Shown piece after piece: positions 32,301 to 38,300 of a DNA stretch of 64,000 nt (its first letter is position 1; each line of letters starts with the position of its first letter). The stretch is from Escherichia coli (GTDB lineage: Bacteria; Pseudomonadota; Gammaproteobacteria; Enterobacterales; Enterobacteriaceae). Location of the stretch: assembly GCF_001677475.2 (NCBI RefSeq), contig NZ_CP012498.1; one strand, given 5' to 3'. The position numbers are program-made.

Positions 32301-35300
32301 CGCGTTATTAATTTGGGAGAGAAAAAATGACTCAATACGTATTCGAACCTCAAGCGCCCGTTACCGTACCGGTTGTTGGCAGTGATGAACAATTCCCCGT
32401 GCGCCGCGTTTACTGCGTCGGGCGTAACTATGCCGCCCATGCCCGCGAAATGGGCTTTGATCCGGATCGTGAACCGCCATTCTTCTTCTGCAAACCGGCG
32501 GATGCCGTTGTTCCGGTTGCCGCAGGCGAAACGCTGGCGCTGCCGTATCCGGCGCAGACCGATAACTACCATTACGAAATTGAACTGGTGGTGGCCATTG
32601 GTAAAAAGGGCAGTGATATCCCGCCGGAAAACGCCCATGAATATGTCTGGGGTTATGCCACGGGTCTTGATATGACTCGCCGTGACCGTCAGATGGAAAT
32701 GCGTCAGATGGGCCGCCCGTGGGAAATCGGTAAAGCGTTTGATCTCTCAGCGCCCATAGCGCCGCTGCACAAAGCCAGCGATATCGGCGGTATTGATAAT
32801 GCGCCAATCTGGTTACAGGTTAACGGCGAAGATCATCAGCGCAGCGATATTCGTCATCTTATCTGGTCAGTGAATGAAACCATCAGCTACCTGTCTGGTT
32901 TCTTTGAACTGCAACCGGGTGATCTGATCTTCACCGGTACGCCGGAAGGGGTTGGCCCGGTAGTGAAAGGTGATGTGATCACGGGTAACGTCGAGGGCTT
33001 AACCCCTATCGCGGTGAAGATTGTCTGAGGTGCATGATGAAGCTGTACAGTTTTTTTAATAGTTCAGCATCGTACCGGGTACGCATTGCGCTGGCGCTGA
33101 AAGGCATTAATTACCAGACCGAAGGGGTGAATATCCGCATTGGTCAGCAAAATGAACTGGCCTATCGGCGGATGAATCCGGTCGGGCTGGTGCCGACGCT
33201 GCTGACTGACGAGGGGGAGTCACTCGGTCAGTCGCTGGCGATTATTGACTGGCTGGAGAGGCACTACCCGCAAGTTCCGCTGGTGCCGCAGGAAGAACCG
33301 ACCCGCAACAAGGTGCTGGAAATTGTCTATGCCATCGCTTGTGATATTCATCCATTGAATAACTTGCGCGTGCTGCGCTACCTGACCGAAGAACTGAACA
33401 TCAGTGAAGAAGAAAAAAAACGTTGGTATGCGCACTGGATCCAGCAAGGGTTAAGCGCGGTGGAACAACTGTTGCGCCAGAACCAGTCGGGGCAATTTTG
33501 TGTGGGCGAGACGCCGACGCTGGCAGATTGCTGCCTTGTCCCGCAGTGGGCGAACGCGCTACGCATGAACTGCGATTTGAGCGGGTATCCACGCTGCAAA
33601 GCGGTGTACGACGCCTGCACACAGCTGCCAGCGTTCATTGCTGCAGCGCCAGAAAATCAACAAGATAAAATTTCAGCCTGACCAGGAGAACTATAATGAC
33701 GAAAGTGACACGCGCAGTAATTGTGGGAGGCGGGATCGGCGGTGCGGCAACTGCGCTGTCACTGGCCCGCCAGGGGATCAAAGTGGTGCTGCTGGAAAAG
33801 GCGCATGAGATCGGTGAGATTGGTGCGGGCATCCAGTTGGGGCCAAATGCGTTTTCGGCGCTGGACAGCCTCGGCGTCGGCGAAGTTGCCCGCCAGCGCG
33901 CGGTGTTTACCGATCACATTACCATGATGGATGCGGTGAACGCCGAAGAAGTGGTGCGCATTGAAACCGGGCAGGCCTTTCGTGACCATTTCGGCGGCCC
34001 TTACGCGGTGATCCACCGGGTTGATATTCACGCCTCGGTGTGGGAAGCGGTACTGACGCATCCGGACGTGGAATATCACACCTCCACCAACGTCGTGGAT
34101 ATTCGCGAGACGGAAGACGATGTAACCGTGTTTGACGATCGCGGCAATAGCTGGACCGGCGATATTCTGATTGGCTGTGACGGCGTGAAGTCAGTGGTGC
34201 GCCAGAGCTTATTGGGCGATGCGCCGCGTGTCACCGGACATGTTGTCTACCGTGCGGTTATCGATTGTGCCGATATGCCGGAAGATTTGCGCATTAACGC
34301 ACCGGTACTGTGGGCGGGGCCGCATTGTCACCTGGTGCATTACCCTTTGCGCGGCGGCAAGCAGTATAACCTGGTGGTAACATTCCACAGCCGCCAGCAG
34401 GAAGAGTGGGGCGTGAAGGATGGCAGTAAAGAGGAAGTGCTCTCTTACTTTGAAGGGATTCACCCCCGTCCGCGCCAGATGCTGGATAAACCGACTTCAT
34501 GGCGACGCTGGTCAACCGCTGACCGTGAACCGGTGGCGAAGTGGGGAACGAAGTGCATAACGCTTGTGGGCGATGCGGCCCATCCGGTGGCGCAATATAT
34601 GGCGCAGGGAGCCTGTATGGCGCTGGAAGATGCAGTAACGCTGGGTAAGGCGCTGGCGCAGTGTGAGGGTGATGCGGCGCAAGCCTTTGCGCTGTATGAG
34701 TCGGTACGAATTCCGCGCACTGCGCGCATCGTCTGGTCGACCCGTGAAATGGGGCGGGTTTACCACGCCGCAGGGGTAGAACGCCAGGTACGTAATCTGC
34801 TGTGGAAAGGGAAATCGCAGGTAGATTTTTATCGGAGTATGGAGTGGCTGTACGGCTGGAAAGAAGACAACTGTCTGCAACCAAGATAATACGACATAGA
34901 ATTCGTTAAATACCATGGAGCCTGTACATAGATTTGTGTAATTATCTTATTTTAATATGTATAATTCTACATTAAAAGAAGGTTAAATTATGGGCAAAGA
35001 TGTTACAGGCTCTGGTTAATGAACCACGGCAGCCTGACGGCTGCAAATTGAAAACCGCCCTGTTCTGAACTGCACCCCAAAAGTTGGACACTCAACGAAG
35101 TAAGGTGCAGTTTTTTATGAGTAAATATTCTCTCAGCTTTAAGCTTGAGGTTGTGCAGCACTATCTTTCCGGCATGGAAGGGCAGAAAGCGACTGCAAAG
35201 CGTTTTGGTATCGATCACAGTGCCGTTCGTAAGTGGACTGCTGCCTGGAAGCTTCATGGCGAAGCCGGACTTACCACCCGGCATTTCGCCTATTCTCCCG

Positions 35301-38300
35301 TCTTTAAAGAGTCCGTTATCCTGCATATGCGTGAGCACCGGTTGTCTGTTCGCGAAGTCTGTGCAAAATTCACTATTCCGGCTTTCTCCACGGTCCTTCT
35401 GTGGGAACGCCTGTATGATGAAGGGGGATTAGAAGCCCTCACTGACAGCCGACGCGGGAGAAAAACGATGCCAGAACGCCCTGAAAATAACCCGGCACCT
35501 TCTTTACAGGCTCCTCTTAACCATGATGAACGAGAGGAACTTGAACAACTGCGTGTTGAAGTGGCTTATCTAAAAAAGTTGCAGGCCTTGCTCAGGGAAA
35601 AAAGCACGTCAAAACGCGGGATAAAACGCAGATCGTGAATGAGTTAAGGCCGGACTTCCCTCTTGCGCGCTTGTTAAAAGCGGCAGGGCTGGCGAGAAGT
35701 ACGTTCTACTGGCAACTGGCGAGCGGTAAAAAACCAGACAAATATGCCGATGATAAGCGGCAGATTTTAACGCTGTTCCATAAACATAAAGGACGGTATG
35801 GATACAGGCGAATCACGCTGGCTATCCGCCGGGAAGGAAGCTTACTGAACCATAAAAAGGTTCAGAGGTTAATGAAGGCGTTAGATTTAACCTGCTGTAT
35901 CAGAAGGAAGAAATACAACTCTTACAGAGGCCGGTATGGGAAAGTGGCGGGTAATGTGCTGAACCGGCAGTTCAGTGCGGATAAGCCCAACCAGAAGTGG
36001 GTAACAGATGTCACGGAATTTAAAATCAGCGGAGAAAAACTGTATCTGTCCCCCGTTCTGGATCTGTATAACGGAGAAATAGTTGCGTATCAGATGGCGT
36101 CCCGTCCTCTTCTGTCGATGGTGGATGACATGCTGTTGAAGGCTGTATCTGTACTGGGTAAAGACGAATACCCGCTGCTCCACTCAGATCAGGGCTGGCA
36201 ATATCAGATGGCGCATTATCAGAACCGGCTTAAGGAGGCTGGTCTGAAACAGAGCATGTCAAGGAAGGGGAACTGTCATGACAATGCGGTGATGGAAAGC
36301 TTCTTCGGCACGCTGAAATCTGAGTGTTTTTACCTGATGGAACACAAGAATATCAGCGAGTTGCGCATGGCTATCGATAATTACATCCACTATTACAACC
36401 ATGAAAGAATAAAACAGAAACTGAAAGGCCTGAGTCCGGTAGAGTACCGAACCCAGGCCCTGATAGCCGCTTAATATAAACCGTCCAACATTATGGGGTC
36501 AGTTCAGTTCGTCCTGTTGTTGCCGCACGCCCCGCAGAATATGTATGCTCTGAGGACCTGTTTTATTAAGGACTCATCCCCTTATGTTGACCCGCAAAAG
36601 TATCGATACAGTTCTGTTCTCTGTTGGTGCTGAGAAGTTCTCACAATGTGAATGGGACTGGATGAAGATGCTCAAACCCATGGCCCCACCACCTGCGATG
36701 GTCGCGGCCTCCATCCTGGAGCACCGTGGTGATACAGCAGCCCTTACCCTACTACAAGATACCGGGGGTTAATCCGTCCTCATGTTGTCCGGTTTTACTC
36801 CCCGTCCGCTGAAACGCCTGTTCAGTGAGTTAGCTGGCCTGGATGTAATCACTCGTTCAATTCAATTCTCTTAATGTGGGAAAATTTCCGAATTCCAAGC
36901 GGCCCCCTCAGTACACGCTCGTAAGAGCCCCTGACGGCCCGCTAACGCGGAGATACGCCCCCGATTGAGGCCGGGACCACTCCGACCGCGCACAGATGCT
37001 CTGTCATGGCTGAAAGCGGTTATGGCTTAGCAGGATGGGGATGGGTAAGGTGAAATCTGTCAATCAGTACCAGCTTAAGCCGGGCTTCGGAGGTTTGGCA
37101 ATGTGCCATATGAAACAGTTGAGTGCCGCCTTCCATGCCGCTGACGCAGCATCCTGGTGACGATATCTGAATCGCTATATACTGTGTATATACACGGTAA
37201 TGACGAGGTGATAAATGGCACAGGTTAATATGAGTTTAAGAATTGACGCTGAACTGAAGGATGCTTTTATGGCCGCTGCAAAAAGCATGGATCGTAATGG
37301 CTCTCAGTTAATCCGGGATTTTATGCGCCAGACCGTTGAACGGCAGCATAATACCTGGTTCCGTGACCAGGTTGAGGCAGGTCGTCAGCAACTCGAACTC
37401 GGTGATGTGCTTCCCCATGATATGGTCGAATCCTCCGCTACTGCATGGCGGGATGAAATGAGCAGGAAGGTTGCCGGTAAATGATGGATATATTCTGGAC
37501 CATGCTGGCCAGCCAGGACAGGAAGCACATTCGTGAGTACATTGCGGAGCAGAACCTGATGTCCGCCATTGAACTGGACGAACGGATTGGTTATTCAGCC
37601 AGCAATCTGGCCGGGCAGCCGTATAAAGGCCGCAACGGTCGTGTGGAAGGTACCCGGGAACTGGTTATTCACCCGCATTTTGTTCTGGTTTATGAGGTCG
37701 ATAGCCAGTGGGGAAAAGTGTATATCCTGCGCGTATTGCATACCGCACAGAAGTGGCCATAGAGGGGCTGTCCGGATATAAAAACGTCTGACGGAGATGC
37801 AATAACCATGAATAATGATGATCTGGCTACCAAACGTGCGCAGACTATTGCTGAAGATCGCCGGATTTTTGTTTGCGAGGTTTAGCTGAACGGACCGTAT
37901 AACTAACTGAAAGACAATGACATTGTCTGTTTTTATAACGGTAATCTCAGGCCATGACAAGCCGCAGCCGTCAGGCTGCCTACTCGATTTCTTTTCTGAT
38001 TCATCTGAAAAGAAAACAGGTAATTTTTATTTTCAAAAGCAAGCCGGTAATTATAGCTGTCCTGTCCGGGGAAGTATTCCTTCATATAAGTTAATGCAGG
38101 CCACAAATAATATTCCTGAGGACATTACTTTTAAAGCATATTACCTGCCCTACAAAAAGAATAATGTTACATCCCTGTCACTGGAATTAAATTCAGATTT
38201 TAATTATTTCTTTACAGATATACTGGATGGCTGTTCAGTTGGAATACGCACATAGGAACTTGTAACCCGCGTATACCATGCTAATGCCTTCAGGTATGGT

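Follow-up and report, generated by a model that had tools for sequence, protein, structure and literature searches.

Insertion sequences (IS) of the IS3 family encode a DDE transposase, OrfAB, that is fused by a frameshift, and they transpose by copying themselves out as a circle that is then pasted into a new target. Here we analyze one element annotated as IS3-like, ISEcB1, in a 64,000-nucleotide stretch of Escherichia coli DNA (contig NZ_CP012498.1, hereafter the window), where it lies downstream of mhbM, the gene of a 3-hydroxybenzoate 6-monooxygenase. Among its relatives, IS1397 and ISKpn1 insert specifically into repetitive extragenic palindromic (REP) or palindromic-unit sequences, and this specificity resides in the transposase (PMC1525189). 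The DNA around the element has relatives of its own in IS1294 and IS1294b, whose terIS end has a GTTC cleavage site and a single subterminal palindrome, and which use GTTC or GTCC targets beside the oriIS end (PMC13181058). Insertion of IS1294b in mcr-1 is also known.

Comparison of the window with complete genomes and plasmids makes it very probable that ISEcB1 transposed into the dead IS DNA of a virulence plasmid, forming the innermost layer of a three-layer nest at a site that would be guided by a short motif, with a probably neutral outcome. Nested IS insertions in the IS debris of plasmids are commonplace, and the event is an ordinary one that involves an already known element, unusual only in the apparent preference of that element for AAAACCGCC and in its location on a plasmid. 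The features discussed below are listed in Table 1.

Identity of the inserted element

The element at 35066-36506 starts with TGAACTGCACCCC, finishes with GGGGTCAGTTCA and matches copies annotated as ISEcB1 at 99.9% identity over its full length (1441/1441 nt). These copies, found in E. coli B (REL606, BL21), E. coli C and about 90 further complete genomes, carry the label 'IS3-like element ISEcB1 family transposase, programmed frameshift' from RefSeq and its annotation pipeline PGAP; they served as the references for naming, under the convention that at least 95% nucleotide identity denotes the same IS. The window copy is 1 nt apart from the copy of strain 510016 (a synonymous change, leaving the OrfAB protein identical) and 2 nt apart from the copies of E. 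coli B and C, one of the two being an E307K difference. Judged by nucleotide identity, the element is the already known ISEcB1 and not a new one.

The boundaries were set by alignment with copies at unrelated loci, yfbM-nuoN (BL21 and C) and sseB-sseA (510016), which have the same ends and carry their own 4-bp direct repeats, CATG or TTTT. The terminal inverted repeats of the window copy are 25 nt long and 80% complementary, and the element reads TGAACTG...CAGTTCA, i.e. 5'-TG...CA-3'. An earlier reading of the window from sequence alone (the sequence-only reading) had described a 1441-bp element with clean terminal repeats starting at 35066, and its length, ends and coordinates are confirmed by the alignments. 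That reading had also allowed that the ends might match no known IS, which is rejected by the 99.9% identity to ISEcB1.

Two other ways of delimiting the element were tried. The megablast matches of ISEcB1 run 15 bp into the left flank of the window, owing to a target motif that the sites share. A correspondingly longer IS was ruled out, since each site has its own bases between motif and left inverted repeat (IRL), and since the motif is also present in alleles without the IS. A 3-bp TTC duplication around a 1442-bp IS was ruled out because every other copy finishes with ...GTTCA.

The element, which the sequence-only reading had called intact, is also whole by its parts: orfA, the overlapping orfB, the frameshift site and the inverted repeats. 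Pfam finds HTH_28 in OrfA (1e-23), and rve (5.6e-25), rve_2 and HTH_21 in OrfB. The heptamer A-AAA-AAG stands in the X-XXY-YYZ phase of orfA, and the -1 frame is open from there straight into orfB, so that a frameshift at this heptamer would yield the OrfAB transposase. A frameshift-stimulating RNA structure 3' of the slippery site is weakly supported (z = -1.85).

OrfB of the element is 60% identical to InsK of IS150 and 60% identical to that of ISKpn1, against 30% for InsF of IS3 and 27% for InsD of IS2, the comparisons with InsF and InsD being made with partial sequences; E. coli K-12 and a Klebsiella plasmid supplied the reference elements. Together with the matching inverted repeats and slippery site, these values agree with the assignment to the IS150 group in the sequence-only reading and support the placement of ISEcB1 in the IS3 family, IS150 group; the placement is made relative to IS150, ISKpn1, IS3 and IS2. 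IS150 of E. coli K-12, the type element of the group, resembles ISEcB1 in length (1443 versus 1441 bp), in its OrfA of 173 aa, in the shared heptamer and in its near-identical inverted repeats (TGTACTGCACCC...GTTGGAC versus TGAACTGCACCCC...GTTGGAC). However, the two OrfA proteins are merely 33% identical, which makes ISEcB1 a distinct element. OrfA of ISKpn1 is 40% identical to that of ISEcB1, and its IRL is almost identical.

Target-site duplication and empty sites

We rebuilt the empty site by joining 34890-35065 to 36511-37214 (880 nt) and searched it against complete E. coli genomes. Plasmid pOkiPb01695_1 matches the rebuilt site over all 880 nt at 99.5% identity, and at least five further plasmids span the junction at 99.1-99.5%. 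At the insertion point these plasmid alleles read AAAACCGCCCCTGTTCGTCCTG, with one GTTC and with flanks that are collinear on both sides; the occupied site of the window reads AAAACCGCCCTGTTC, the IS and then GTTCGTCCTG. Since the empty alleles have a single GTTC, the GTTC pair that the sequence-only reading had noticed is a true 4-bp target-site duplication, within the 3-5 bp of the IS3 family, and the empty alleles that it had proposed to look for in related sequences are indeed present on E. coli plasmids. An allele of this site occupied by ISEcB1 was found neither in 5,426 complete E. coli genomes nor in PLSDB.

The GTTC repeats could instead be coincidental, the IS having come by homologous or illegitimate recombination, or by an assembly artefact, without transposition. 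The ends of the IS hold GTTCA/TGAAC, a 4-bp match at a junction has a chance of 1/256, and at least one ISEcB1 copy elsewhere, in BL21(RP), is without a duplication. However, the empty alleles have exactly one GTTC at the exact insertion point between collinear flanks, and 4-bp duplications are found at all other well-defined ISEcB1 copies. Coincidence, which the sequence-only reading had named as what would refute it, is rejected by the single GTTC of the empty alleles, and we regard an arrival without transposition as scarcely credible.

The flanks of the window differ from the empty alleles by 0.5%, which argues that the insertion is recent. The sequence-only reading had likewise suggested a recent insertion, and the 99.5% identity over the flanks and the 1-2 nt that separate the IS from chromosomal copies are in line with it. 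On the evidence of these alignments, the GTTC-flanked ISEcB1 is the product of a genuine, fairly recent transposition.

Order of the nested layers

The outer layer is the left end of an IS1414-like element of the IS256 family. Positions 34860-35024 align with the IS1414 locus of pCFSAN004180G, in which an intact IS1414 lies at the identical junction 3' of mhbM, the offset of its transposase ATG being equal to that of the ATG at 34990. Over 109-112 nt the remnant (34916-35024) is 83% identical to the left end of that intact IS1414, while the adjoining mhbM flank is identical at 325/326 positions (99.7%), a contrast more suggestive of recombination that exchanged one isoform for another than of gradual divergence. 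The remnant thus shares with IS1414 the IRL, the 5' untranslated region (UTR), the position of the start codon and the junction with mhbM, and differs in being a different isoform (83% over about 110 nt) of which about 105 nt are left; no transposase survives in it. Its IRL, TGGAGCCTGTACATAGATTTGTGTAA, starts at TGGAGCC (34916-34918), about 27 bp past mhbM, a position set by comparison with the inverted repeats of IS1414 and with a second IS1414 fragment that the window contains at 61845-62246. The sequence-only reading had recognized an IS256-type left end next to mhbM; the remnant is there, and its start lies 3-5 bp further right than the position 34913 then given. The second fragment is a 402-bp left end of 98% identity, much nearer to IS1414 than the remnant by mhbM.

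The same reading took ISEcB1 to interrupt this IS256-family remnant, so that the nest would have two layers. In its favour, about 27 bp separate mhbM from the start of the IS1414-like left end, and an intact IS1414 does occupy the same junction in pCFSAN004180G. However, IS1414 homology stops at 35020-35024, 42-46 bp short of the insertion point (GAAC at 35021-35024 is assignable either to the IS1414-like remnant or to the following element). Position 35021 begins a stretch that matches the terIS end of an IS91-family element (GAACCACGGCAGCC...62-aa open reading frame (ORF)) at 94-97% identity, and the match resumes past the IS and runs to 36824. The insertion point is in IS91-family sequence, and a two-layer nest is highly improbable. 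The annotation is corrected to three layers, an IS256-family element that holds an IS91-family element that holds an IS3-family element, instead of two.

The two parts of the middle layer, 35021-35065 and 36511-36824, match the left end of an IS91-family element at 94-97% identity; more than 5,000 E. coli genomes contain this element. Six intact relatives, inserted in mcr-1, viaA, yfaL, ehaA and other genes, define this element as 1688 bp, GAAC-CACGGCAGCC...TTCCTATACGT, without a duplication and with GAAC, CAAG or GGAC just outside the right (oriIS) end; the right-end tetranucleotide and the lack of a duplication are read from the relatives, the window copy being without an oriIS end. GAAC and the palindrome GCAGCC-TGAC-GGCTGC are common to all intact copies, and the first 14 TnpA codons in the window agree fully with the genes that bear the annotation 'IS91 family transposase' in the intact copies. 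Compared with IS1294 and IS1294b, which are rolling-circle elements of the IS91 family with an HUH transposase, the window fragment shares the terIS end (GAAC is GTTC on the other strand, plus one palindrome) and keeps merely the first 374 nt or so. The breakpoint coincides with a GAAC native to IS1414 (...GCTAAC GAAC TGGCC...), so the IS1294-like element inserted at a canonical target inside the IS1414-like transposase gene.

The conserved 62-aa ORF of the IS1294-like elements ends 10 nt before tnpA, a position that recalls orf121 of IS91. The latter regulates termination at terIS and has been described as unique to IS91 (PMC13181058). Neither the 62-aa ORF nor the antitoxin-like ORF further downstream has a Pfam match. 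Another piece of the window, 60840-60964, is a 125-bp internal fragment of an IS1294-like element (96%).

Because the empty-site plasmids already have the IS256-family layer, the IS91-family layer and the truncation of the latter, all three predate ISEcB1. By these comparisons, the nest is one of three layers, IS256-family, IS91-family and ISEcB1 from the outside inwards, and its history may be read as follows. An IS1414-like element would first have come to lie beside mhbM. An IS1294-like element would then have inserted at GAAC in about codon 10 of the IS1414-like transposase gene, and a deletion would have cut it 43 nt into tnpA, a state kept in pOkiPb01695_1 and other plasmids. Finally, ISEcB1 would have inserted into the terIS end of the IS1294-like element, a state seen in this window alone. 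For this last step, OrfA and OrfB would be fused by the -1 frameshift at A-AAA-AAG into the DDE transposase, the element would form a circle, and a 4-bp staggered cut would give the GTTC duplication, with the site probably chosen because of AAAACCGCC, which lay ancestrally 7 bp upstream of the cut.

Several points weigh against parts of this account. In the C-run at 35055-35060 the window has one C fewer (at 35057) than all empty-site alleles (CCGCCC versus CCGCCCC), which could be a mutation after insertion, strain variation or a sequencing error in the homopolymer. The name IS1294/IS1294b-like is drawn from the 1688-bp length, the end anatomy, the target tetranucleotides, the location in mcr-1, the RefSeq annotation and the literature. 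That the window is plasmid DNA is read from 98.6% matches on both sides and not from a replicon gene. In a paper on the long-term evolution experiment, moreover, the ISEcB1 copy of E. coli B is listed among 'incomplete' IS elements (PMC7881107); by sequence this copy is full length and frameshift-competent.

Target choice

The sites used by ISEcB1 have a common sequence (Table 1). At each independent site with a duplication, the left end of the element lies 4-7 bp from AAAACCGCC, with the IRL towards the motif. At the chromosomal sites the 4-bp duplication falls in the loop of a terminator-like hairpin (CCGCC...GGCGG), and the predicted folding energies of these targets are -8 to -19 kcal/mol (z -2.4 to -8.9). 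In contrast, the window target has a predicted folding energy of -2.9 kcal/mol (z +1.4) and forms no hairpin. The motif occurs only six times in the 64-kb window when both strands are counted, so its adjacency to the insertion is very unlikely to be due to chance. With the extra C of the empty alleles, the spacing from motif to cut in the window becomes 7 bp, as at the nuoN and sseB sites.

From about six independent events, it is likely that ISEcB1 has a motif-directed target preference, and the occurrence of the motif without a hairpin in the window suggests that the targeting is directed by sequence, like that of IS1397 and ISKpn1. We lean, with some reserve, towards the fuller proposal that ISEcB1 is site-specific, recognizing AAAACCGCC and cutting 4-7 bp 3' of it with the IRL always facing the motif, that this choice is directed by sequence and not by structure, and that the window holds the first plasmid-borne case. 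The motif, with an A-tract, is the 5' arm of many intrinsic-terminator hairpins. Among the ISEcB1 insertions found, only the window copy allows the role of the motif in target choice to be told apart from that of the hairpin.

In using the loop of an extragenic hairpin as a target, the chromosomal ISEcB1 insertions are like those of ISKpn1 and IS1397, IS150-group elements that insert in the loops of REPs or palindromic units; the ISKpn1 copy examined here sits within a palindrome. Unlike theirs, the ISEcB1 sites are not REPs but an A-run followed by a CCGCC...GGCGG terminator-like hairpin, and the window site has the left-arm motif only. If the targeting is indeed directed by sequence, ISEcB1 would be a terminator-seeking counterpart of the REP-seeking IS1397 and ISKpn1, and the plasmid copy would be a route of horizontal spread. 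No description of ISEcB1 target specificity was found in the literature searched.

Few sites are in use among the sequences sampled. Nine of the E. coli loci sampled represent the same yfbM-nuoN insertion. A scan with the exact pattern of the ISEcB1 left end gave no match in species-representative genomes, none in viral contigs and two in metagenome contigs, both at the yfbM-nuoN site. Look-up of the exact OrfA protein returned 7,626 assembly index blocks, and the contigs that were read show the nuoN and sseA/sseB hotspots only.

Some copies depart from the pattern of the sites. In BL21(RP), a third copy in DLP12 prophage DNA has neither AAAACCGCC nor a duplication (flanks ...TGAATG and CCCATA...), and probably marks a rearrangement junction or a problem of assembly. 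In strain 510016, the repeats of the yfbM-nuoN copy do not match: the left flank, ...CCGCCTGATTTT, is that of the sseB-sseA copy in the same strain, and the right flank is CATGTCGG. The pattern resembles the outcome of recombination or gene conversion between these copies that extended into the shared AAAACCGCC flank. Similarly, the sseA copy of BL21 reads AATG before the IS and AATT after it.

Activity of ISEcB1

It is plausible, as judged from intact copies and scattered insertions, that ISEcB1 is still active, a possibility that the sequence-only reading had raised and with which the intact sequence is consistent. Strain-specific insertions are found at fumC-fumA and in this plasmid, and an insertion at ydcZ has been reported in ST131 (PMC12662567). 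The copy could instead be intact in sequence yet quiescent, ISEcB1 being nearly immobile and vertically inherited and the insertion being rare and old. Nearly all of the sampled copies, among 131 full-length ones in 5,426 genomes, are at two sites, the nuoN and sseA/sseB terminators; thousands of IS1294-like copies have the motif and none is occupied; and the listing of the E. coli B copy as 'incomplete', mentioned above, points the same way. Against quiescence, the copy retains its reading frames, frameshift site, DDE residues and inverted repeats, copies from different loci are 1-2 nt apart, the strain-specific insertions exist, and the empty alleles are 99.5% identical to the flanks in the window. 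We consider quiescence possible though rather unlikely.

Table 1. Features of the insertion and its surroundings in the window, and ISEcB1 target sites (4-bp duplications set off by hyphens)
Feature	Position	Strand	Remarks
ISEcB1, complete, 1441 bp	35066-36506	+	99.9% identity to PGAP-annotated ISEcB1 copies (E. coli B, C, 510016, others)
ISEcB1 left inverted repeat (IRL)	35066-35089		
ISEcB1 right inverted repeat (IRR)	36483-36506		
orfA, 173 aa	35117-35638	+	HTH_28 DNA-binding domains; protein same as OrfA of E. coli copies
Slippery heptamer A-AAA-AAG	35572-35578	+	Phase correct in orfA frame; predicted programmed -1 frameshift to 452-aa OrfAB transposase
orfB frame, 279 aa	35635-36474	+	HTH_21, rve, rve_2/rve_3; DDE motifs WVTDVTEF, LHSDQG, DNAVMESFF
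Left copy of duplication GTTC (4 bp)	35062-35065		
Right copy of duplication GTTC (4 bp)	36507-36510		
IS1414-like left-end remnant	34916-35020	+	IRL, 5' UTR and about the first 10 transposase codons (ATG at 34990, frame disrupted)
IS1294-like left (terIS) end, first part	35021-35065	+	97.5% to first 40 nt of intact 1688-bp copies
GAAC cleavage tetranucleotide	35021-35024		
Subterminal palindrome GCAGCC-TGAC-GGCTGC	35029-35044		
AAAACCGCC motif	35051-35059		
IS1294-like remnant, second part	36511-36824	+	94-96% to intact copies
Conserved 62-aa ORF	36584-36772		
First 43 nt of tnpA	36782-36824		Then truncated
Target site, window			GAAAACCGCC(C)CT-GTTC-IS-GTTC-GTCCTG
Target site, yfbM-nuoN			AAAAAAAACCGCCGAG-CATG-IS-CATG-TCGGCGG
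Target site, sseB side			AAAAAACCGCCTGA-TTTT-IS-TTTT-GGCGGTTTTTT
Target site, sseA side			AAAAAACCGCCG-AATT-IS-AATT-TGGCGGTTTTTT
Target site, fumC-fumA			AAAAAAACCGCC-CCGA-IS-CCGA-AGGGCGG
Target site, K. aerogenes relative (91.5%)			Orthologous nuoN terminator; AAAAAAACCGCCGA-AAAA-IS-AAAA-CTCGGCGGTTTTTT
IS1414-like right-end fragment	28364-28442	+	Upstream of mhb cluster; 92% to last 79 nt of IS1414
mhbM, 3-hydroxybenzoate 6-monooxygenase, 397 aa	33696-34889	+	Pfam FAD_binding_3; same annotation on related plasmids
yacA/ParE-type toxin-antitoxin pair	37215-37762	+	Pfam ParE_toxin; YacA antitoxin and RelE/ParE toxin in pOkiPb01695_1

Plasmid context

Over more than 10 kb, both flanks of the insertion are about 98.6% identical to large IncF-type plasmids from bovine, swine and food E. 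coli and from cryptic Escherichia. The matching plasmids carry the mhb (3-hydroxybenzoate/gentisate) cluster, ehxCABD and sta1. Full-length ISEcB1 was found at 131 places in the complete E. coli genomes, all of them chromosomal (0/131 on plasmids), and the sole ISEcB1-type match in PLSDB is the 91.5% relative from Klebsiella aerogenes. No other full-length ISEcB1 outside a chromosome turned up in these collections: the copies in complete E. coli genomes are chromosomal, and hairpins mark the chromosomal target sites, whereas the window copy is in plasmid-type DNA at a target without a hairpin. A chromosomal E. coli IS would thus now be on a plasmid type that is conjugative in related strains, and the ISEcB1 insertion together with its empty-site alleles would serve as a clean, dated marker for the lineage of mhb/ehx/sta1 virulence plasmids. 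The PLSDB match is LR134127.1 (K. aerogenes NCTC10006 'plasmid: 7'), in which nuoN and rbn flank the ISEcB1-like element, and it is probably a mislabelled chromosomal contig.

ISEcB1 lies 176 bp past mhbM, the last gene of the cluster mhbR-mhbT-gtdA-FAH-maiA-mhbM, and 705 bp before the YacA/ParE-type pair. Since it is inside dead IS sequence, no effect on the neighbouring genes is expected, and the insertion is probably neutral for mhbM and for the toxin-antitoxin pair.

An IS1414-like right end (28364-28442) precedes the mhb cluster and an IS1414-like left end (34916-35024) follows it, an arrangement that resembles flanking by two IS1414-like copies in direct repeat. Next to each of these ends is IS91-family sequence: to the left, an oriIS-like GGGGTTTGAATTCCTATCGAT at about 28343-28363, and to the right, the IS1294-like terIS. 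Seen from the IS1294-like element, the cluster is on the side of terIS; by our reading of the geometry, one-ended transposition of IS91-family elements would co-mobilize DNA on this side.

Between the IS1294-like fragment and the yacA-like gene is a sequence of about 250 bp (36907-37153) that has inverted copies of 84-85% identity at 20409-20664 and 42427-42674; two copies of this repeat contain AAAACCGCC. A tRNA scan found no tRNA in the window. Rfam, with 30-42 kb of the window scanned, had no match inside or adjoining ISEcB1; the sole match was a strong, full-length one (146.6 bits) to the Hfq-binding small RNA isrC, on the minus strand at 41433-41555.

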